A stretch of DNA of 64,000 bases from a virus (Duplodnaviria > Caudoviricetes): the IMG/VR virus record IMGVR_UViG_3300033121_001564, positions 1-64,000 of that record; one strand, written 5' to 3'. Shown in pieces: positions 23,886-36,559 of this stretch. Both the position numbers and the translations under genes were made by a program. The notes below the pieces were generated by a model that made no database searches, was not told where the DNA came from, and saw only the letters and a list, made by a program, of their open reading frames with translations. The first letter of the stretch is position 1. Each line of letters starts with the position of its first letter.

Positions 23886-24128
23886 ATGGCACCAGAACCC
23901 AACACCACCACCCTGGTCGATGACCACCTGACCGCAGCCGAAACGGCGGCGCTCCTGAAGTGGTCACGGTCGGCTCTCGACAACCGGGTGGCACTCGGAC
24001 AGGCACCCGGTCCCGTCATCAAGTTGAACTCTCGGTTCCAGCGGTGGAGCCGATCGGAACTCCAGGCGTGGGTGGCAGCCGGAATGCCCCCCATGAAGGA
24101 ATGGCGAGCGACCCAGAAGAAGCGCTGA
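23886..24128 (+). CDS. AlpA/excisionase-like HTH protein
   Basis: LTAAETAALLKWSRSALDNRVALGQAPGPVIKL...RWSRSELQAWV. Confidence 0.85.
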   Translation: MAPEPNTTTLVDDHLTAAETAALLKWSRSALDNRVALGQAPGPVIKLNSRFQRWSRSELQAWVAAGMPPMKEWRATQKKR

Positions 24129-24138
24129 GAGACAAACC

Positions 24139-24486
24139 ATGTCCACCACCCTTGACCGAGGCTACCGCTGGGTTTCGGATCCCGACGTCACGCTGCCCTA
24201 CGGCGTGCCGGCACTGCTCCGCGTGACCGTCTGCGGCCACGCCAGCTACTTCTACGTCGCGGACGCGGGCGACGGCGCCTACCGCATGACGGAGGAGTTG
24301 CCGGGCGGGAGACTTGCCCACTCGGTCGAGGTAGATACGACGTTCGGGCCGGACGTCGAGCACTGGGAGTGTTCGTGCAGGCACTACCGGGCGCGGAACC
24401 CCAGGGGGGTCACGCACGGCTGCCTGCACACGAGGGTGCTGCACGCGGCACTCGGGAAGCGAGGGGCCTGCCCGGTGGCTTCGTAA
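24139..24486 (+). CDS. SWIM zinc-finger protein
   Basis: WECSCRHY...GCLH. Confidence 0.7.
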   Translation: MSTTLDRGYRWVSDPDVTLPYGVPALLRVTVCGHASYFYVADAGDGAYRMTEELPGGRLAHSVEVDTTFGPDVEHWECSCRHYRARNPRGVTHGCLHTRVLHAALGKRGACPVAS

Positions 24487-24550
24487 TCGGGACGGAACCG
24501 AGGGTTGGGACGCAGTCTGCCCAGCGGGCGGATGCGTAAGGAGTACGCAC

Positions 24551-24769
24551 ATGACCTGTCACGACTGCCAATCCCCAGTGCTCCCCGGCGAGCACTGGGG
24601 AAGCCGATACCCGCTCTGCGCACCGTGCGCGGAGACACTGGAGCGAGACGCGGACTACCGACAATTCGTCGCCTGGCTGGAGGACCCAGATGGATCACCG
24701 GAGATACAAGTCTCGTCACGGACAGGAGACTCAGGCCATCCAGATGCGCAAGCTCCCGGTCGCGGATGA
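24551..24769 (+). CDS. Small zinc-finger protein
   Basis: CHDC...CAPC; AAGGAG RBS. Confidence 0.5.
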   Translation: MTCHDCQSPVLPGEHWGSRYPLCAPCAETLERDADYRQFVAWLEDPDGSPEIQVSSRTGDSGHPDAQAPGRG

Positions 24770-24959
24770 GCACGATCTCCTCCCCAAGGATCATGACGAG
24801 CAGGAGCGAGCCAGGCGGGTCGAGGTTTACGCCCGACACATGGAGGTCTACGGGCAGATCCGCTACGACCTCCTGGGGCCGGGCAAGGATCAGCCCGCAC
24901 CGGACACGAGACGACTATTCCGTCTCGACGGGGACATCGTAGAGGAGGGCGAAGAATGA
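24744..24959 (+). CDS. Hypothetical phage protein
   Basis: Operon packing. Confidence 0.45.
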   Translation: MRKLPVADEHDLLPKDHDEQERARRVEVYARHMEVYGQIRYDLLGPGKDQPAPDTRRLFRLDGDIVEEGEE

Positions 24960-25084
24960 ACCTTCCCGACAATCTGGCGCCGGCAATGGGCTGGTGCCTC
25001 GTGGGGGGAATACTGACCCTCCTGTTGCTCCTGACCTGGTGGCTGGGCACGGACGACGACTTCGAGGACCTGGACGACGACTGA
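24956..25084 (+). CDS. Small single-pass membrane protein
   Basis: MNLPDNLAPAMGWCLVGGILTLLLLLTWWLGTDDDFEDLDDD; ATGA overlap. Confidence 0.55.
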   Translation: MNLPDNLAPAMGWCLVGGILTLLLLLTWWLGTDDDFEDLDDD

Positions 25085-25896
25085 GCCACACCCGCCGCCG
25101 TGCGGCGAGAGAGAGCCTCGAATCTCCCTCTCTCTCGACCCGAAGGGACACACGGCGGCGGGTTGTTCTGGAGGAGAGGCGACCCCCGGACCAGCTCACT
25201 CGTGAGCAAGTGTCGGGCCGGCGACGGTGCGGGGGATACCGGGACCGAGGACAAAGGGGACAACCATGTTACGCGAGGCCAGCGGGGGCCTGTATCCAAC
25301 CCCGAGTTGACGACTGAATTTCCCTGGACACCCCCGACACCTGGGGGCCCTGAAAAGTGGTGCGACACCCCGGAGAGTACGGGGAACGGCGGGCATGGGA
25401 GCCTCGGAGAGCGAGGCGCGGGGACTCGGGTTTTGTTTTCACAAGTCGGACGAAAACCCGCCCCCGTGCGAGGGTTCGATTCCCTCCCCCGCCAATCGCA
25501 CCCGGCGTGCGCCCTGGGGTGAGTCGCGACGGCTCGTTGTCGCTGCGGCGGTTGTGCGCACGTCGGGTGTGGAGACACGAGGAAGCACAGGACGCGAGGA
25601 GTTGACCTGGCCCAGGGACGGGCCGACCGCTCAGGACGAGCGGCACTGAGACTCGTCGGGGAACGGGGGGCAAGACGCCCAGCAACACCGTGAGCCAGGG
25701 ATGGCTCACCCCGACAGTATCGTCCGCTGTGGGCACACGACCGGCTTACCGGGACGGTCGCGAGGGCTTACCGTCGGCTTCGTGGGGCAGAAGGGAGCCT
25801 CACGGGGAGTCCCCGACGGCCGCAGTTCGACTCTGCGGCGGCGGATTGGGCACGAATCAGGGCTGGCCCCTACGGGGGTCCACGGGGAGGGTGCGC
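25085..25896 (+). ncRNA. Long structured, probably non-coding region containing a tRNA-like element
   Basis: 12-bp stem 25091-25102/25151-25162; T-arm GAGGG-TTCGATT-CCCTC followed by CCCCGCCA (25470-25494); no convincing ORF. Confidence 0.45.
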
Positions 25897-26280
25897 ATGT
25901 ACGTCCACCATGTGAGGGAGATGCGGGAGGAACTGGGCAGGCTCCACGAAAACGAGGCCCGCCGTGCCGAGCGGGACGCACGACGGCATCCCGATCGGTT
26001 GGCCTGGGTGATCGCCACGCTCGAGGCGTACCAGCGGGAGCTGCGCGAGGATCTCCTTCAGTCGGAGGGGACCTACACCCGGGCGGAGTTGGAGGCTACG
26101 GGTCGAGCGATCGCCCTGCTGACACACCAGCGGACGGTGCTGCTGGCGGCGATCGAGTTGATGATCGGCGGGGCACTGTCGTCCGCGGCCGGAGTGCTGG
26201 CTGCGGACTATCCGCACGGGCTGGCCGTCGTGGATGCGCTGGAGACGGGGAAACTCGCCGAACTTCTGGAGGTGATGTGA
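25897..26280 (+). CDS. Hypothetical phage protein
   Basis: GGAGG RBS; helical sequence. Confidence 0.6.
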   Translation: MYVHHVREMREELGRLHENEARRAERDARRHPDRLAWVIATLEAYQRELREDLLQSEGTYTRAELEATGRAIALLTHQRTVLLAAIELMIGGALSSAAGVLAADYPHGLAVVDALETGKLAELLEVM

Positions 26281-26459
26281 TGCAACACGGATTCTTCTAC
26301 GGATCGCTGGCATGGTGCGCGATCTGGGGACTGGTGATGGTCTGGCTGGCGTGGTCGAGCCCAGAGTGGCGGTGGTCGTACCTGGGATGTGCCCTGGCAC
26401 ACCTGACGTGCGCCCGGGTGATCTGGGTGTCGCGTCCGGAAGGGCAGGGCGTGGAGTAA
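26280..26459 (+). CDS. Small membrane protein
   Basis: Two hydrophobic segments; TGATG coupling. Confidence 0.5.
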   Translation: MQHGFFYGSLAWCAIWGLVMVWLAWSSPEWRWSYLGCALAHLTCARVIWVSRPEGQGVE

Positions 26460-26746
26460 TGATTGGGATGGTGCATGAATATGGTCCCGGGAGGTGTGTC
26501 GGTTGCGGCAGTTTCATCAGCGGCGGGACGAGGTGCTATTCCTGCCTGGTTCGACAGAAAGCTCCGCCCGCCCCGGACATGCCCAGCGACACCGCAAGCG
26601 AGGCCCGCACCAACATCCGCACGCTCCTGGCGGGCGGGTGCCTGATCGGCATGCTCGCGTCGGGGCGGGGCAAGGCGCCGTACACCGACCAGCTCGACGA
26701 GTGCGTCGCGCTGGCGGATCGGTTGATGGAGCGAATGGGGTTGTGA
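26459..26746 (+). CDS. Small zinc-finger protein
   Basis: CVGCG...CYSC; TAATG coupling. Confidence 0.55.
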   Translation: MIGMVHEYGPGRCVGCGSFISGGTRCYSCLVRQKAPPAPDMPSDTASEARTNIRTLLAGGCLIGMLASGRGKAPYTDQLDECVALADRLMERMGL

Positions 26747-26904
26747 GTCACCGTCACCAGTCCCAGCCGGGGCGGTGAGGTCGGCGGCGGGGTGTGAGGG
26801 CGCACACGCGGGCGGCAGCGACCTCCGCACGCGGGGAGCCGGTTCGATGCCAGTGGCCGTCGGGTGGGGCATGGTGCCCCTTGCTGGATAGTAGAGGACA
26901 TGAA

Positions 26905-27435
26905 ATGGAAGCGAACAACGAGGAACTCGACGCGATGGAGGTGCTCAACCGTGCAGCCCTGCGTGTCGTCCGCCTGCGACGACAGGCGAGCCACCCCGGT
27001 GTGACCCGCCAGGCGCGCCGCCCGTGCGAGGTCAGTAACGGCAACAGCAACGGTAACGGCAAACACCAGCCAAGCCCGGAGGCGGGCGAGCCGAGATCGC
27101 TGGAACTGTACGCCCAACTCGACCAGACGGGCGGCGTCAGCAACAGCGATCGGTTCAACCGGTTCACCGAGCGGCTGGTCGGCGACATCCTTCGCGGATC
27201 GATCGACCCCAAGGCCGCGAACGCGGTGGCCCGCCAGAACAGCAACACCATCGCCATGACGCGGTTGGCGATCTCCAAGGGAACGCCCGACGGTAGCGGG
27301 CACCGTGTGCTCGACCTGTACCGCGAACAGGTCCAGCGGTGCCAGGACCGGGCGCACGCGCTGAGCGAGCAGGAAGAGGCCGATATCCTGGTCCGCCAGA
27401 TGCTGGAGTCCGCTGCGGTACTCAGCAAACCCTAG
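26905..27435 (+). CDS. Hypothetical protein directly upstream of the tracr/CRISPR locus
   Basis: GAGG RBS; 176 aa. Confidence 0.6.
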   Translation: MEANNEELDAMEVLNRAALRVVRLRRQASHPGVTRQARRPCEVSNGNSNGNGKHQPSPEAGEPRSLELYAQLDQTGGVSNSDRFNRFTERLVGDILRGSIDPKAANAVARQNSNTIAMTRLAISKGTPDGSGHRVLDLYREQVQRCQDRAHALSEQEEADILVRQMLESAAVLSKP

Positions 27436-27446
27436 GCCGACAGCCA

Positions 27447-27640
27447 CCCGCGGGATGGTTCAGGTCCATCCCGCGGGGAATCGAAACACACGACGCGACG
27501 ATTCACCCACCGCGCAGGGTGAGCGCGAGGCGGCCCCCTCTCGACGAGGATGGCTCTCGCGGAAATCGGCAAAGAGCAGCCCCGGGCATGGGAAGACCGC
27601 CGACCGGGGAGTGCAAGATTTGATTCCTTCTGCGAAATGA
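27447..27640 (+). ncRNA. Putative tracrRNA with bipartite anti-repeat
   Basis: AGTGCAAG (27610-27617) pairs with repeat CTTGCACT; TTCCTTCTGCGA (27624-27635) pairs with repeat TCGCAGGGGGAG using 3 G-U pairs; several upstream hairpins. Confidence 0.75.
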
Positions 27641-27718
27641 CTGGATGAGAATTTCCGATGCGACTGCGGCAAGGGCAGGGAGGACGCGAGGTTGTGGCGA
27701 CGGGATGCCGGAAGTGAG

Positions 27719-28282
27719 GTCGCAGTTGGAGATCCTACGGGACTTGCACTGCGGCGTCTCTTTCGCCTGCGCGAGGAGGGCAAGGAGGAGCGTCGCAGGG
27801 GGAGTTCTTGGGGAACTTGCACTGCGGCCGCGCTGCTGCTCCAGCATGGCGAGCAAGATGTCGCGTCGCAGGGAGAGTTCTTGGGGAACTTGCACTGCGG
27901 CCACTCGTAACTGACGACGCGGTAGTGCCGCTAGTGGTCGCGTCGCAGGGGGAGTTCTCAGGGGACTTGCACTGCGGCTGATCCTAGCCAACCGAGGGCG
28001 GACCTGTCAAGCATGTCGCAGGGGGAGTTCTCAAGGGACTTGCACTGCGGCAGCAGGCACATCAGGTGTACGAGTCAGCACGACCGTCGTCGCAGGGGGG
28101 GGGAGTTCATGAGGAACTTGCATTGCGGCATCCTGACTGCTGAGGAAGTTCCCTGAGAACTTGCACTGCGGCTCCCCTACGAGCAGGGCCACCCCAGGAA
28201 GAAGGGGTGTCGCGAAGGGAGTTTCCAGGAGACTTGCACTGCGGCAATCAGATACTGTTCGAGCCCACTCTTGCACTGCGAC
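27719..28282 (+). CRISPR. CRISPR array: 8 repeats of ~37 bp plus a 3' remnant; consensus GTCGCAGGGGGAGTTCTYRGGGRACTTGCACTGCGGC
   Basis: Repeats start at 27719, 27792, 27865, 27942, 28015, 28089 (41 bp), 28136 and 28209; unique spacers of 36, 36, 40, 36, 37, 6 and 36 bp; remnant CTTGCACTGCGAC at 28270-28282. Confidence 0.93.
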
Positions 28283-28339
28283 ATAACGCGCTGTGGGGTG
28301 AAACTCCCAAAGAACGCCTCATCACAAAGGAGACACCAA

Positions 28340-29836
28340 ATGACCGCCACCTATCAATGTATCATCTGTGACACCTCGAAACCGGCAGCGAAAGGGAAAC
28401 TCAAGACGGTTGGCGGCAAGAAGGTCCACTCCGACTCCATCCCCAAGGGGTGGAGCCGCCGCAACGGCAACAACGTCATTTGCAACAAGTGCAGGGATCG
28501 CACCTCTCGCATTCGCGCCGTCACGCTCCCCGTGATGGGCGTGGTGGACTTCCTCGATGACCCTTTCGCAGAAGGGAAGAAGCGTGCCGACCCCGAGAAG
28601 GCGATAACCCCCGAGAACATGCAGAAGAGGTTCCTGGAGTGCCTGACGGGGACATACCGAGGCGAGGACGACGGGCCGCGAATGAACAACCGCGACGGCG
28701 TCTGGCACATGAGTACGGGGCTTGCCAACTGGGCGGTGCGCAAACTGCTGGAGCGCGACACCCAGATGCTTCCGAACACGGATTCCGCGTGCCCGGGACC
28801 GCCGGTGATGAACCTCGCAGCAACCTACAAGGCGGAGGGGCACCCGCTCGGCAAGTGCGCGACGAGGACCATCGGGAACATCTTCCGTGCGGTGCAAAGC
28901 AAGTACAAGGACGATCGCCTGCACGCCGTCTGGCTGGGCAAGAAGAGTCTGCCCCTGTTCCGATTCCCCTACCCCTACCCGATCGACAGTGACAGCTGGC
29001 ATACGGGGTACATGGAGGTCCCCCTCGATCACGTCGGCAAGAAGCGGGCGGCGGAGGGCAAGGGGCCGGCAACCAAACTGGTGCCCACGATCACCCTGCG
29101 GTTCCACGAGAGCGACACCGGCCCGCGATGGGTCTTGCAACTGCCGTCCGGGCAGAAACACTGGGGCCGGCATCTGGCGGACTTCCGGGCGATCCACCAG
29201 GGCAACGCCCCCAAGCGCCAGATGCAACTGCTGGCCAAACCCTGCGCGCCGGACGATCCCGGCGTCGTCGTCATCTTCCGGGAGACGTCCGGGGGGCAGA
29301 GGATCCCGTGCCGGTTGATGGTCAAACTCGTGGCGGACTTCCCCCGAAAGACGGACCACGGCGCCCGCACGGAGGTGATGTACCTCCGCACGGACCCCCA
29401 GGCGTTCTGGACCGCCGCGATCGACGGCCGCGAAATGAGGCCGTTCATCCTGAACGGGGACCACATCACCCGCTCCCTGTGGATGATGAAACGTCGGCAC
29501 GAGCAGCATCACGCCTGGCTCCAGCGTGTTTCGGAAGACATGAAGTACGAGAAACGCTGGCCGCTGCGTGTCCGCCGGCAGACGAACGACGCCTACCAGA
29601 AGGTATGCGATAAGCACAGGAGGAGGATCGACACCTGGATCAAGCAGATGGTCGCCCAGACCGTGAACTTCGCGATCCGGCGGGGGGTGGGGAGGATCGT
29701 GTACGACGACCAGAACCGGCAATGGACCGACAGTTTCCCCTGGCACAAGCTGAAGACACTGTTGAAGCAGGCATGTGACGCACGGGGGGTCCACTACACG
29801 GACGACAAAACCGGAGAGGAGGCGAAGACGACATGA
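28340..29836 (+). CDS. Cas12f/TnpB-like type V effector, probably nuclease-dead (~498 aa)
   Basis: N-terminal CxxC...CxxC; degenerate RuvC-I MYLRTDPQAFWTAAIDG; bridge-helix region KHRRRIDTWIKQMVAQTVNFA; RuvC-II IVYDD; FPWHKLKTLLKQACDARGV, then stop with no zinc ribbon or RuvC-III; AAAGGAG RBS; adjacent to the array. Confidence 0.8.
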   Translation: MTATYQCIICDTSKPAAKGKLKTVGGKKVHSDSIPKGWSRRNGNNVICNKCRDRTSRIRAVTLPVMGVVDFLDDPFAEGKKRADPEKAITPENMQKRFLECLTGTYRGEDDGPRMNNRDGVWHMSTGLANWAVRKLLERDTQMLPNTDSACPGPPVMNLAATYKAEGHPLGKCATRTIGNIFRAVQSKYKDDRLHAVWLGKKSLPLFRFPYPYPIDSDSWHTGYMEVPLDHVGKKRAAEGKGPATKLVPTITLRFHESDTGPRWVLQLPSGQKHWGRHLADFRAIHQGNAPKRQMQLLAKPCAPDDPGVVVIFRETSGGQRIPCRLMVKLVADFPRKTDHGARTEVMYLRTDPQAFWTAAIDGREMRPFILNGDHITRSLWMMKRRHEQHHAWLQRVSEDMKYEKRWPLRVRRQTNDAYQKVCDKHRRRIDTWIKQMVAQTVNFAIRRGVGRIVYDDQNRQWTDSFPWHKLKTLLKQACDARGVHYTDDKTGEEAKTT

Positions 29837-29871
29837 GGGACGATTACCTGTCGTAAGGAGACTGACCACAC

Positions 29872-30117
29872 ATGGCAAAGACGAAGACCAAACCCAAACC
29901 ACCCCAGGCCCCGCGCACCGAGGTGCGCCACGGCACGAGCTTCGGCGCTCCGTGCGTGACGATCCTGGGACGCCACGCGACGCTGGGCGAGCGGGTACTC
30001 CTGTCGGCGGTGTGCGCCGACCGGAACCACGGCGAGGAGATCGCCCGGGAGTGGCTGACGAAGAACGAGTCGTACCTGCCGAAACTCCTGGGGCTCGGTG
30101 TCCCGGGGATCGGCTGA
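29872..30117 (+). CDS. Hypothetical phage protein
   Basis: AAGGAG RBS. Confidence 0.55.
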   Translation: MAKTKTKPKPPQAPRTEVRHGTSFGAPCVTILGRHATLGERVLLSAVCADRNHGEEIAREWLTKNESYLPKLLGLGVPGIG

Positions 30118-30132
30118 CAAGGGAGGTGTCGG

Positions 30133-30522
30133 ATGGAGACGACAGCAGAAGCGGTGACGTCGGTGACGGTCGGCGACCACGTCGAGGTGCGGGTGGGCGC
30201 GCTGGTCTACACCACCAGCGACGACCACGAGCCGATCGCCATCACGGTGGACGGGTTCGAGCGGAACGCCCTGGGGCACATCCGGATCCTGTGCGATGGG
30301 AAGCCCTACTCGCCGTGGAGGTGTTTCGTGAGTGAGTCTGCCTACTGGCGGCACATGCTGGCGAATCTGGAACACCAGGCGGGGATGGGAGGGGAGGAGA
30401 TGGCCCTGCGCGGGCTGATCTCCAAGCTCGAGACCACGCTATCCACACTGAAATTTCTTCACGGCTGCGCCCGCCTCGAGCGTCAGGCCCGCGAGTTCCT
30501 GTGGAAGGAGGGCAACCGTTGA
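30133..30522 (+). CDS. Hypothetical phage protein
   Basis: GGAGGT RBS. Confidence 0.6.
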   Translation: METTAEAVTSVTVGDHVEVRVGALVYTTSDDHEPIAITVDGFERNALGHIRILCDGKPYSPWRCFVSESAYWRHMLANLEHQAGMGGEEMALRGLISKLETTLSTLKFLHGCARLERQAREFLWKEGNR

Positions 30523-30732
30523 GCCGCATCCTCGACACCCTCGCCCGCTCCTGGCCGCCCGCCTGCGGGTTCCTGGCCTACGCCAGCTGGCGCTGGGCTG
30601 CCAACCACGACCTGCGCGACCACCCGGCCGACTGGGTGCTCCTGGGACTCGCTGCCGTCTCGGGGGCTTGGCTGGGCGTCGCATTCACCTGGGAGTGCTG
30701 GCAGCACGACGTTCGGCTAAGGAGGGCCGGAG

Positions 30733-31068
30733 ATGGAGGAGACGACCGTATCGCAGATGGCGCAGGTGACACCAGCGAGCGAACCGCCGGATCTCGATGA
30801 CCTCATCGAGGCGGCGCGATGGAGGCCGAAGTTCAGCCATGTGGGCATCCCGGTGGATGTGTCCACGAAGCGGCGGCGACTGGGCCAGTTGCTTCGCCGG
30901 AGACGTGAGGAGCTGGGACTGACAGGCATGGACGTCGTTCGACGCATCCAGGTCAACCAGTCCACGGTGGGTTATGCGGAGCGCGGGGCGACGATGCCTC
31001 ACGCGGCGCTCGATCGCTACCTGGCCCTGCTGGGCTGGCGGGTGCCGGAACACCCGTCAGGGGCGTAG
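30733..31068 (+). CDS. XRE-family HTH protein
   Basis: LGQLLRRRREELGLTGMDVVRRIQVNQSTVGYAERG. Confidence 0.8.
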   Translation: MEETTVSQMAQVTPASEPPDLDDLIEAARWRPKFSHVGIPVDVSTKRRRLGQLLRRRREELGLTGMDVVRRIQVNQSTVGYAERGATMPHAALDRYLALLGWRVPEHPSGA

Positions 31069-31104
31069 GCGGGGCTGGAACGGGGAGGCACGGGAGGAAA
31101 GATC

Positions 31105-31749
31105 ATGGACGGTGACGGAAAAAACGGACAGGACGTGTTCGATCTGGGAGCGGGGGCGCCAACGTCGGCGCCAGCACCAGCGCCCGAGGCGGGCCCGGCG
31201 GCGCTCGATCAGCAGGTGTCGGCGCTGTTCAACCGGGCGTCCCTGAAGGGGGCGATCGAGGCAGCGCCGGTCATGCGGCGGGATGACCCTCTCGCTGTCG
31301 GCGAGCCCGTCAGTATGAGCCGGTACGTCGCGAACCTGGAGCGGCAGCTGGCGTCGGCACTCGAGAACCGTGACAGGTGGGAAAAACTGTCCCAGGTCCG
31401 GCTGAAGCTGATCGAGGACGGCGCGGAGGCGCTCCGCAAGGCGACCCTCGAGCGGGCCGACCTGCGAGAGGCCAACACCCGGCTCGCCAACCGGGTCGAG
31501 TACCTGGAGCAGCAGACGCGGAATTCGTCGCGGGAGGAGTTGAACCGCCTTCGCAGCGAGAACGACGGGCTGACGGCGAAGGTCCGCGAACTGGAGCACG
31601 ACCTGGACCAGGCCCGGCGGGAGGCGACGTTCGCCGCCGCCCACAAGGTCGAATCCCACCTGGCGGACATGCGGGCGATGGCCGACGTGGTGGTCAACGT
31701 CGTCGATCGTGCGATGGAAGCGGTCGAGGCGCGAGCAGCATTGGCGTGA
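31105..31749 (+). CDS. Coiled-coil protein
   Basis: Heptad-rich; GGAGG RBS. Confidence 0.65.
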   Translation: MDGDGKNGQDVFDLGAGAPTSAPAPAPEAGPAALDQQVSALFNRASLKGAIEAAPVMRRDDPLAVGEPVSMSRYVANLERQLASALENRDRWEKLSQVRLKLIEDGAEALRKATLERADLREANTRLANRVEYLEQQTRNSSREELNRLRSENDGLTAKVRELEHDLDQARREATFAAAHKVESHLADMRAMADVVVNVVDRAMEAVEARAALA

Positions 31750-31757
31750 CCAGTGGC

Positions 31758-31882
31758 ACCGGGCGTCCGTGGCGGACCGCGGGCAGGCGTCCATCCGCCG
31801 CCGCGTGAGGCGACACAGCGCGGTCAACCAGCGAGCGAGCGTATCGGGGGTGCGACTCCCCTGAGCGGACGACCGGTCTTTT
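31758..31882 (+). ncRNA. Intergenic tRNA-like fold
   Basis: Closing stem ACCGGGCGTCCG/CGGACGACCGGT; inner GACCGCG/CGCGGTC; T-loop-like GGGG-GTGCGACT-CCCC. Confidence 0.4.
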
Positions 31883-31905
31883 GCTTCACACATGGAGGAT
31901 TGTGC

Positions 31906-32196
31906 ATGGAAACCACGGAAGCCCTGGCCGGGCACCTCGCAGCGGCGCACAAAAAGATCGCCGAACTGGCGCATGCCAAGAACGAAGCCGAATCAGCTCT
32001 CCTTCAGAAGAAGGAAGAAGTGGAGAGGCTTTCCGCCCAACTGGAAAAACTGAAGGGAGATCACAGATCCCTGGACCTGGAACACTTCACGCTCCGCAAG
32101 AATTACGACGAGGCTGTGGACGCCAATATCAGGCTCGGGAAGTACCTGCGAAAGGTGTGCAGCGTCCTGAAGGGTGTCACGCAGCACAACCTGTAA
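31906..32196 (+). CDS. Coiled-coil protein
   Basis: GGAGG RBS; heptads. Confidence 0.6.
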   Translation: METTEALAGHLAAAHKKIAELAHAKNEAESALLQKKEEVERLSAQLEKLKGDHRSLDLEHFTLRKNYDEAVDANIRLGKYLRKVCSVLKGVTQHNL

Positions 32197-34543: not shown

Positions 34544-36559
34544 GTGGCTCGACTGTTGCAGTCCAGGCGGATGCGTCGGCGGCTCTGGATGGCCGCCGGG
34601 GGAAGGTGCCAGTCGTGTGGATGCGAACTGCTCGACGGTTGGCATGCGGACCATGTGGTTCCCTACCGCATCTTGCAGAGGACGTCCGTGTTCGACATGC
34701 AGGCGCTGTGCCCGCAGTGCAATCTCAGGAAGGGGGCGTTCGTGGCGGACAATTACAGCGTACTGGATCAGTATTTCAGGTTTTCCAGGGAGTTTCGTAA
34801 ACAGGACGGGCAACTTCGCGCCTGGATGCACGCCCACAATGTCAACCCTATTCGGGGCAACACCGTCACCTGGCTGTTCGAGTTGGTCACGGGCTACGGC
34901 AAGACGCTGACAGCCTACGGATGCTTCTGGATCCTCAGACAGCGTGGACTCGTCGAGAATATGCTCATTCTCGTGCCGACGGACGACCAGCGGAGGCAGT
35001 TCGCGGCCGACGCCGAGATCGCCAATCAGCTGCTGGGAGCCAGGATACAAACCTGGATCATCACCGGAGACGAGAAGGACATCCGGGCGCGAAAATCAGG
35101 TAGGTACAACGCCTTCGTCGGGACGTACCAGCACCTGTCCCAGGACACGTCGTGGTATCGGAGTCTGATGGACGACGGCAACCGCTGGCTCATCGTGCTG
35201 GACGAGGTGCATCACCTGGCGGAGGCTGGACGCTGGGCCGAGTGCGAGGGCTCGCTGCCGAACCGAAACTTCCGGATTGGCCTGACCGCGACGCCCCTCC
35301 GATCCGACCGCGCCCGCCTCTTCGGCATGCCAGAGAAGGCGACCGAGAGTGTGACGTACCAGGAGGCTTTCCGTGAGGAAGTCGTCAAGAAGGTGGTCGC
35401 ATACATCGACCACTACAACCTGAAGGTGGACGTGAACGGCGAGACCGTCGAGTTGACGACCGAGACCCTGAAGAAGGAGGGTGTCGTCGATTTCGAGAAG
35501 TACGAGGCCAAGAGGCAGTTGAGGTACAACCGCGACTACCTCAATCAGATGCTGCTCGAGCCCATCAACGACCTTGCCCAGAGACTTACACGGCACCCGG
35601 GCCAGCATCAGATGGTGGTCTTCTGCATGTCGTGCAAGCACGCGGACTACGTCTGCGGCCAGGTGAACTCCATCTGCCAACAACTCGAACTGCCGTACCG
35701 TGCCGAGTGGGTGGGCGTGGGTGAGGGCATGGACGGAACCATCAAGTCGGCGAAGGAGAACGCACAGATCCTCGACGACTTCCGCGACAACAAGTTTCAC
35801 GTTCTCGTCCAGGTGGGGAAGGCGGAGGAGGGCTTCAACGTCAAGCGAATCAGCGTGCTGGTCTTCCTGCACCTCATCGGTGCCATCGGCAAGATCATCC
35901 AGCAGATCGGGCGCGGACTCAGGAGGAACAACGCCTTGCCGTTCAGCCAGGACACCGTCAGCGTGTACGCGAGCGCCGACACGCCGATCGCCAGCACCGT
36001 CCTGAAGATGCAGGCCGAGTCCAAAGGCCCGGAAGAGGTGGATCCGGAGAAGAAGGAGTGCGACCGGGAGTGCGACATCCGCATGCAGGGCATCCCCAAC
36101 CTCATCCTCGTCGAGTCCACCTACGACAGGACAGACGTCGTCTCTCCCAACGGCATACCCTGCCTGAGCCCGGAGGGTGAGAGTTTCTGCCAGAAATTCA
36201 ACATCCCGCCGGGAGAGTACCTGAAACACATCGGGTCTGCCGCGACCACGACGCCAGCCCGCCCGGAGTTGCTCACGGGAAAGATCGACAGGGACGCCAA
36301 CTTCGAGCAGCAGGTCAAGAAAGCTGCGGGGACCTTCGCCAGCAACATCGTCAAGCTCATGGGGCGGAACGGCGTGCCGACCGACGGCAACTCCATCGGC
36401 ATGGCCATTCGCGCCATCCACGCCGAGTGGAAGCGCACCAGCGGCCTGAACCACGGCGCCATGCTGCCGGAAGACTTCCGCCGCAAGCACGCCTGGCTCA
36501 AGGCCGAGAACGACAAGATGGCCAGCAAGAGGGAGGTTCCGGCATGGGTGAAGTGGTGA
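34544..36559 (+). CDS. HNH nuclease-SF2 (DExH) helicase fusion
   Basis: CQSCG...HADHVVP...LCPQCNLRKG; TGYGKT, DEVHH, LTATP, EGFNV, QQIGRGLR. Confidence 0.88.
   Translation: MARLLQSRRMRRRLWMAAGGRCQSCGCELLDGWHADHVVPYRILQRTSVFDMQALCPQCNLRKGAFVADNYSVLDQYFRFSREFRKQDGQLRAWMHAHNVNPIRGNTVTWLFELVTGYGKTLTAYGCFWILRQRGLVENMLILVPTDDQRRQFAADAEIANQLLGARIQTWIITGDEKDIRARKSGRYNAFVGTYQHLSQDTSWYRSLMDDGNRWLIVLDEVHHLAEAGRWAECEGSLPNRNFRIGLTATPLRSDRARLFGMPEKATESVTYQEAFREEVVKKVVAYIDHYNLKVDVNGETVELTTETLKKEGVVDFEKYEAKRQLRYNRDYLNQMLLEPINDLAQRLTRHPGQHQMVVFCMSCKHADYVCGQVNSICQQLELPYRAEWVGVGEGMDGTIKSAKENAQILDDFRDNKFHVLVQVGKAEEGFNVKRISVLVFLHLIGAIGKIIQQIGRGLRRNNALPFSQDTVSVYASADTPIASTVLKMQAESKGPEEVDPEKKECDRECDIRMQGIPNLILVESTYDRTDVVSPNGIPCLSPEGESFCQKFNIPPGEYLKHIGSAATTTPARPELLTGKIDRDANFEQQVKKAAGTFASNIVKLMGRNGVPTDGNSIGMAIRAIHAEWKRTSGLNHGAMLPEDFRRKHAWLKAENDKMASKREVPAWVKW

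Follow-up and report, generated by a model that had tools for sequence, protein, structure and literature searches.

Type V-F (Cas12f) systems combine a small effector of the Cas12f fold with a long, structured tracrRNA that forms a pseudoknot. The scaffold lies in the 5' part of this RNA and the anti-repeat in its 3' part, and in the crRNA the spacer comes after the 3' part of the repeat. The guide RNA of Un1Cas12f1 contains a bipartite repeat:anti-repeat duplex and its repeat presents inverted ends. The phage locus that we analyzed, as interpreted below, resembles type V-F systems in these properties, including the two seen in Un1Cas12f1. It differs from them in that its effector lacks the zinc-finger/RuvC-III end and the conserved catalytic Glu and is borne by a phage, and in that the locus is devoid of cas1, cas2 and cas4. 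The scaffolds of its sibling loci also lead directly into the first repeat, and docking there relies on two short helices that covary, in place of a long anti-repeat.

C-terminally truncated dCas12f proteins were described by Hoffmann et al. 2026 (PMC13472631), together with a CRISPR-adjacent cluster that presents covarying structured RNAs upstream and no sigma-E link; the systems characterized in that study use single chimeric guides and no tracrRNA-like species were found. The effector of our locus shares with dCas12f the Cas12f fold, a C-terminal truncation at the same point and the predicted binding of DNA without cleavage, and the covarying structured RNAs upstream of CRISPR loci are likewise common to the CRISPR-adjacent cluster and our family. 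However, the sequence similarity is marginal (E 0.037) and the phage carries no sigma-E. Moreover, the CRISPR-linked example of dCas12f comes from a Chitinophagaceae genome, whereas our family is high-GC and mostly found in phage recombination/replication modules.

TnpB omega-RNAs and the guides of TldR proteins carry a scaffold, a guide-adjacent hairpin and a 3' guide on one RNA, as do our sibling loci and the window's own locus if it is read in cis only (see below). TldR proteins are nuclease-dead derivatives that act as repressors, some of them on prophages, which is a further likeness. Unlike TnpB and TldR, the family possesses multi-spacer arrays and a scaffold located outside the 3' end of the gene, and no transposon ends were seen. 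Finally, Altae-Tran et al. 2023 (PMC10691335) propose that a half repeat fused with the tracrRNA after Cas12f lost RuvC-III. The scenario agrees with our family in the loss of RuvC-III, the half repeats beside the scaffold and the arrays of scaffold-plus-guide units (such as the two of locus L001), but it starts with a separate tracrRNA and crRNA and ends with their fusion, and our locus looks opposite or intermediate. The family is not named in the accessible part of that text, and our literature search returned no paper describing this phage family or such a split hairpin.

The Cas12f-like effector and its phage neighborhood

The window, i.e., the whole stretch of 64,000 nucleotides that was analyzed, belongs to a 98,475-bp virus record rated complete. 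The neighborhood of the locus is a phage recombination/replication module (YqaJ, HNH-helicase, DnaB). Around the scaffold RNA described in the next section, the locus presents the following features:

26794..27435, + strand: small ORF 'X' (ORF list), with an all-helical AF2 model
27447..27477, + strand: strong 12-bp hairpin, CCCGCGGGATGG / CCATCCCGCGGG, read from the letters, after ORF X and just before the scaffold
27719..28245, + strand: CRISPR array, 8 repeats of 37 nt, consensus GTCGCAGGGGGAGTTCTCAGGGGACTTGCACTGCGGC
28246..28282, + strand: truncated last spacer (28246-28267), then terminal half repeat CTTGCACTGCGAC (28270-28282)
28340..29836, + strand: Cas12f-like effector, 498 aa, N-terminal CxxC..CxxC (Foldseek, profile alignment)

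The AlphaFold model of the effector (pLDDT 75) adopts the Cas12f/TnpB fold in its predicted structure. Foldseek matched this model to 64 PDB chains at E <= 0.001: AsCas12f was the best match (8j12_B; E 3.7e-12), followed by dCas12f, Cas12k and TnpB, and the top matches listed include Fanzor and other Cas12 proteins. The Atlas neighbors of the effector are Cas12f1-like. No match was found among the Pfam (PF07282 included), PADLOC, NCBIfam and PHROG models. Five relatives were recovered by a word-index search and about 1013 clusters by an exhaustive profile search (553 of them at E <= 1e-30), and a protein-pattern search of the viral and genome contig collections recovered none. One homologue (locus L220, 1-6003) is located among ArsR-type regulators and a low-molecular-weight phosphatase, not phage genes, and is accompanied by a two-repeat mini-array; its surroundings are reminiscent of the dCas12f loci that PMC13472631 describes as chromosomal and efflux-linked.

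The profile of the effector family aligned weakly to Cas12f1 and to dCas12f (PDB 9n9c), and both alignments end at the same point, which is where the zinc-finger/RuvC-III part of Cas12f1 would start and where the last residues of dCas12f are found. The alignment extends to residue 363 of the 365 of chain 9n9c_A, with the marginal similarity given above (E 0.037). The effector is C-terminally truncated, as is the Cas12f of the dCas12f-sigma-E system, and the effector and all its homologues end about 40 residues past the RuvC-II region, with no zinc-finger and no RuvC-III. The position of the RuvC-II Glu is occupied by D, C, Q or L in the alignments of homologues, and neither a complete RuvC triad nor a zinc-finger (TNB) insert was found in the effector. 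Because the protein is truncated before the zinc-finger/RuvC-III part, it is probably nuclease-dead, and we infer that it binds DNA without cutting.

The dCas12f-sigma-E system includes an adjacent ECF sigma factor, and the phage has none: the neighboring ORFs carry no sigma domain, Sigma70_r2 has no match in the whole phage, and the one r4-like sigma match is sub-threshold and located about 52 kb away. Cas1, an adaptation gene that a Cas12f locus may carry, is absent from the 98-kb phage. ORF X has weakly conserved counterparts (16-26% identity in the alignment) that adjoin the scaffold or array in most related loci. Besides the window, they were located as follows:

L005, 9056-9463
L006, 430-738
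L001, 2208-2612
L211, 2465-2692
L212, 4468-4764
L214, 4782-5144

Searches of Pfam, PHROG and PDB folds gave no match for ORF X; the helical protein of this type may constitute a third component of the system. The hairpin that follows ORF X (27447..27477) is a possible terminator or boundary. An Rfam scan of positions 24000-32000 returned nothing.

The scaffold RNA and the docking of family repeats

The DNA around the homologues contains a conserved non-coding block that adjoins each gene and, in most loci, leads directly into a CRISPR array. We built a covariance model (R1) from ten copies of this scaffold. In the phage the model had a single hit, at 27498-27642 on the + strand (94 bits, E 4e-25), and each of the roughly 14 related loci has a scaffold adjacent to its homologous gene. 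Copies were found in L001 (twice), L004, L005, L006, L008, L011, L211, L212, L214, L216 (twice), L217, L218 (twice) and L220, those of L214, L216, L217, L218 and L220 lying outside the set used to build the model. The elements of the window's copy are:

27498..27603, + strand: scaffold core (covariance model, covariation)
27504-08 with 27517-21, + strand: stem P1
27509-16, + strand: P1 loop, ACCGCGCA
27524-29 with 27556-61, + strand: stem P2, with a variable inner hairpin
27566-70 with 27599-603, + strand: stem P4
27580-85, + strand: P5a, CCCCGG

The model alignment presents 90.5% of paired cells (76.2% in shuffled alignments), 13 pairs that change on both sides (6.9 in shuffles) and a covariation score of 0.331 (0.103 shuffled), which none of 500 shuffles reached. 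As a control, sliding the partners brought pairing to 44% or less. In three of the ten loci, the automatic helix search settled on alternatives for P4/P5 that were tied, and we therefore used tests of matched versus mismatched loci instead. Arms swapped between loci paired as well as the true arms in 0 of 20,000 permutations for P1, 3 of 20,000 for P4 and 1 of 20,000 for P5, kinship among loci being ignored in these counts. This covariation shows that 27498-27642 on the + strand is one copy of a structured scaffold RNA conserved in the family. An earlier note on this DNA had proposed that the hairpins in this region form a scaffold, and these hairpins indeed correspond to stems P1, P2 and P5 of the covarying RNA. 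Folding of the single sequence did not single out the region (z = 0.25). As expected of a tracrRNA, the structured part is conserved with the effector family and is encoded beside the array and the effector, with scaffold, array and gene all on the + strand.

Searches for further copies were also conducted at the DNA level. A pattern of stem P2 matched 80 and 119 times in two contig collections, but no matching contig encodes a homologue (tblastn) and these matches were rejected as random. Short contigs matching the region all differ from the window at two positions or fewer, with one exception, which leaves no variants to compare. A 151-nt contig from a riverine metagenome matches only the P1-P2 part (27505-27538), with three differences and unrelated flanks; it is probably another locus of the family.

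All loci share the same layout from the end of P4: P5b (6 nt), P7 (27 nt), a tail (4 nt) and one further base, after which the spacer begins. P5b pairs with the P5a segment inside the P4 loop, and the resulting pseudoknot joins the scaffold CCCCGG to the first 5-6 nucleotides of the repeat. P7 is a hairpin opened by A and closed by U (G and C in L005), with 5-7 contiguous closing pairs in most of the family. A further helix, PK2, pairs the 4-nt tail of the repeat with positions 2-5 of the P1 loop and occurs in four Watson-Crick types (CCGC:GCGG, UCGC:GCGA, CCAC:GUGG and CUCC:GGAG). PK2 is perfect (4/4 pairs) in eight of eight loci; this score was reached by 36 of 40,320 permutations, which are only the swaps among loci of the same type and constitute the minimum possible number (kinship ignored). 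The scaffold of every sibling locus is fused to the first repeat with no leader between them, and a closed guide-adjacent hairpin, the tail and the guide are continuous with the scaffold.

Several loci depart from the arrangement of one scaffold and one array. L001 carries two scaffold-plus-array units (1584-2080 and 2684-2990), the first array of which changes between two repeat types with the same P5b and tail but different hairpins. Scaffold units with one or two repeats are found on both flanks of the gene in L216 (1921-2071 and 3484-3624) and L218 (2241-2383 and 4200-4280), and L218 has a 17-nt spacer. These flanking units look like single-guide forms of the same system.

Repeat zero and its proposed pairing with the array

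The array of the window consists of eight direct repeats with a period of 73-78, where at least three are expected of a CRISPR array, and of unique spacers of regular length (36-41 nt), except for one reduced to 6 nt. Positions 25-37 of the repeat (CTTGCACTGCGGC) present one substitution in 104 cells and positions 1-24 present 40 in 192. Degenerate repeats 6-8 form the gene-proximal end of the array and, with the 6-nt spacer, make the array look partly decayed. At 28130-28135 just 6 nt separate repeats 6 and 7, and repeat 7 is devoid of its usual 5' end; a deletion seems to have removed one spacer and a portion of a repeat here.

The array repeat is colinear with the family layout (5 + 27 + 4 + 1) and its tail GCGG fits the P1 loop CCGC of its own scaffold at 4/4 positions. 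P5b is missing from the array repeats: GTCGC stands there instead of CCGGG, does not pair with the scaffold CCCCGG, and pairs with the tail of its own repeat instead. P7 of the array repeat closes in cis with two pairs only, and all eight repeats keep the inner hairpin in cis. The octamer GACGCGAC at 27492-27499, just 5' of P1, is the complement of GTCGCGTC, which arises where spacers 2 and 3, both ending in GTCGC, join the next repeat. This complementarity could represent a further docking contact, or chance.

The segment between the scaffold core and repeat 1, whose 27604-27636 part we term repeat zero, contains the following features:

27604..27609, + strand: P5b, CCGGGG, pairs with P5a and sits where sibling first repeats begin
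27610..27617, + strand: anti-repeat part 1, AGTGCAAG, the P7 5' arm; 8 contiguous pairs with repeat positions 25-32
27622..27635, + strand: anti-repeat part 2, containing the tail-like CTGCGA; 12-14 bp (3-4 G-U) with repeat positions 2-15
27659..27670, + strand: partial repeat TGC(G)ACTGCGGC, comprising the P7 3' arm with an inserted G, the tail GCGG and a C
27671..27718, + strand: 48-nt 'spacer 0', separating the partial repeat from repeat 1

We propose, with a probability of roughly 0.5, that 27498 to about 27640-27670 on the + strand is a tracrRNA-like scaffold for the phage's nuclease-dead Cas12f-like protein, with the P7 hairpin split in trans. The array repeats would have lost P5b, and the scaffold-linked repeat zero would retain P5b and the P7 5' arm, AGUGCAAG. 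In trans, this arm would pair with CUUGCACU, which is invariant in the repeats, and would thereby rebuild the P5 - P7 - tail - guide junction, with the hairpin divided between two RNAs as in a tracrRNA:crRNA duplex. Pairing of UUCCUUCUGCGA with the 5' end of the repeat might then open the terminal stem of the repeat, which might free the tail GCGG for the P1 loop CCGC. The crRNA would begin inside the repeat and carry CUUGCACUGCGGC followed by the spacer, and the complex of scaffold, crRNA and effector would bind DNA with no cutting.

The letters that the earlier note had reported (AGTGCAAG at 27610-27617, TTCCTTCTGCGA at 27624-27635 and ACTGCGGC at 27663-27670) were all found in place. AGTGCAAG is, as claimed there, the exact complement of repeat positions 25-32 (CTTGCACT), which are present in seven of the eight repeats and in the terminal half repeat. 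Its register is exactly that of a P7 5' arm, with an A right after P5b and a U right before the tail, and repeat zero forms no contiguous P7-closing pair in cis and eight in trans with the array. The claimed 12/12 pairing of TTCCTTCTGCGA with three G-U holds for positions 2-13 of the consensus and extends to 14 bp with four G-U; it is perfect with only three of the eight repeats, as the exact partner sequence occurs at the 5' end of repeats 2, 4 and 5 only. Because its partner varies among repeats, the TTCCTTCTGCGA half is weaker evidence than the AGTGCAAG half. The idea of a bipartite anti-repeat needs to be amended: its first half is perfect in register, but by position the segment is homologous to the first repeat of the family and not an independent insertion. 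In repeat zero P5b is kept, and its own GCGA stands 5 nt too early and fits the P1 loop at 3/4 positions.

Cofolding of the repeat with this region, a check proposed earlier, favored the heterodimer by -9.8 kcal/mol over the folded monomers and used both segments. The gain ranges from -4.2 to -11.0 kcal/mol across individual repeats, and a repeat:repeat dimer presents the same gain of -9.8 kcal/mol. The complementarity is extended, as in an anti-repeat (8 bp perfect plus 12-14 bp with G-U), but the duplex energy against the repeat ranks 475th of 39,112 windows (top 1.2% genome-wide), which is not exceptional. These values bear on whether the complementarity could be a meaningless coincidence: the genome is GC-rich and the repeat G-rich, and many windows pair well. 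On both strands of the phage, 197 kb outside the array contain 62 perfect complements of the repeat of at least 8 nt and 16 helices of at least 12 bp with at most three G-U. By our rough estimate, collinear pairs of such matches within 20 nt are expected about 0.05-0.1 times per genome, and far less beside the array. This joint expectation is far below one per genome, and the position and register agree with the layout conserved in the family, so that a coincidence is barely credible.

In our view, the + strand is the supported direction for the region. This rests on the G-U pairs, on the energies of the repeat hairpins (-8 to -20 kcal/mol on the + strand versus -3 to -13 on the - strand, i.e., 5-11 kcal/mol more stable on the +), on the co-orientation of scaffold and gene in every locus and on the gene-proximal position of the degenerate repeats. 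The earlier argument that the G-U pairs fix the direction is logically right but redundant, given the hairpin stability and the shared orientation of scaffold and gene.

The same segment can also be read in cis only, a possibility that we take seriously while judging it to fall short of likely. In this alternative, 27604-27670 is the first repeat of the family with a P7 loop enlarged by about 30-43 AT-rich bases, and the locus encodes a natural single-guide RNA: AGUGCA forms a stem with UGC(G)ACU, the P1 loop binds the tail GCGG, and the 48 nt that start at 27671 serve as a fixed guide. The complementarity to the array would be inherited from a hairpin ancestor and have no function in trans, and the array would either be a relic or give rise to RNAs that rely on PK2 and a hairpin of their own. 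Since the repeat is self-complementary, partial complementarity to it is to be expected of any direct copy that has diverged.

A scaffold-fused first repeat is the norm of the family, being found in every sibling locus, and L216 and L218 have one or two units and no long array. The earlier note had suspected that the lone ACTGCGGC is a decayed first repeat fused to the scaffold; the fusion agrees with this norm, and what was found is a partial repeat (27659-27670), i.e., the last 11 nt of the repeat plus one inserted G, which can pair with AGTGCA across a bulge and so close P7 in cis. When 27610-27670 is folded, AGUGCA pairs with UGC.GACU and GCGGC stays unpaired, the tail of the partial repeat fits the P1 loop 4/4, and the array repeats retain their inner cis hairpin. 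However, the closing stem of this 56-nt P7 consists of three contiguous pairs, a bulge and more pairs, versus eight contiguous pairs in trans. Array repeats without P5b, which covaries in all other loci, would be orphaned, yet their 3' 13 nt are almost invariant, and the second helix of 12-14 bp would be left unexplained. Spacer 0, which has no match elsewhere in the phage, would be the fixed guide of the first unit were this unit a natural single guide.

Comparison of homologous loci, also suggested in the earlier note, showed that the scaffold, P5 and PK2 covary and that the split anti-repeat is seen in one locus only. No other locus presents the split arrangement, including four further loci fetched to find a second, and the anti-repeat itself thus lies outside the covariation support. 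GC-content dips to 48% at 27617-27659, against about 65% around it. An array leader or promoter could occupy this AT-rich stretch, the complementarity being incidental; the stretch immediately precedes the array, at the end opposite to the degenerate repeats. Nevertheless, no sigma-70-like site was found there on the + strand, no leader separates the scaffold from the first repeat in sibling loci, and the register match of AGTGCAAG to the family layout would be unexplained. We regard this explanation as improbable; it is compatible with the other readings and excludes none of them. No terminator-like site was found between the scaffold and the array on the + strand.

Spacer targets and possible implications for phage competition

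We identified one protospacer-like site in the phage:

35543..35564, + strand: site in the phage HNH-helicase gene, 20/22 match to the last spacer (28246-28267)

The match starts from the repeat-proximal end and is in sense orientation; the flanking C also matches, and 300 shuffles reached at most 18. The 5' flank of the protospacer reads ..ACCTC. Both mismatches change an amino acid, and the last spacer was therefore probably acquired from a related phage, an origin in keeping with phage rivalry. For the other spacers no match was found in the phage itself or in the phage collection, and none across the related loci. The first 18 nt of spacer 7 (28173-28190) match the antisense of the L001 effector gene (782-799) at 17 of 18 positions, which is not significant (E 0.12).

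A phage dCas9 with its own tracrRNA has been proposed to act as an anti-CRISPR by biomimicry (PMC10910872). With this precedent, and with an effector that is phage-borne and probably nuclease-dead, the scaffold and anti-repeat could be a decoy that captures the crRNAs of a type V system of the host. But the phage has its own matching array, with tails that fit its own P1 loop, and the one spacer with a resemblance points to a phage gene and not to a defense gene. A decoy is therefore very unlikely in our estimation. Under the tracrRNA-like reading that we prefer, the complex would probably silence related, competing phages.

Tentatively, and with a good deal of doubt, we suggest that the family is a large, undescribed and mostly phage-borne branch of nuclease-dead Cas12f relatives whose guides dock on a shared scaffold through two short, covarying pseudoknot helices, that the locus of the window is a living intermediate between a single omega-like guide and a tracrRNA:crRNA pair, with the guide-adjacent hairpin split between scaffold and array, and that the phage silences rival phages with the system and a conserved small helical partner protein. 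If the pairing in trans is real, the locus shows a tracrRNA anti-repeat arising from the first repeat of a scaffold-fused array, an origin that has so far been inferred from trees only. The family offers a testable RNA model, with two docking helices, clear covariation and a Cas12f relative of about 400-500 aa that is predicted to bind DNA. Practical use could be made of a repressor that is compact, programmable and defined in its guide layout, and the family would add a case of phages predicted to carry RNA-guided silencers.
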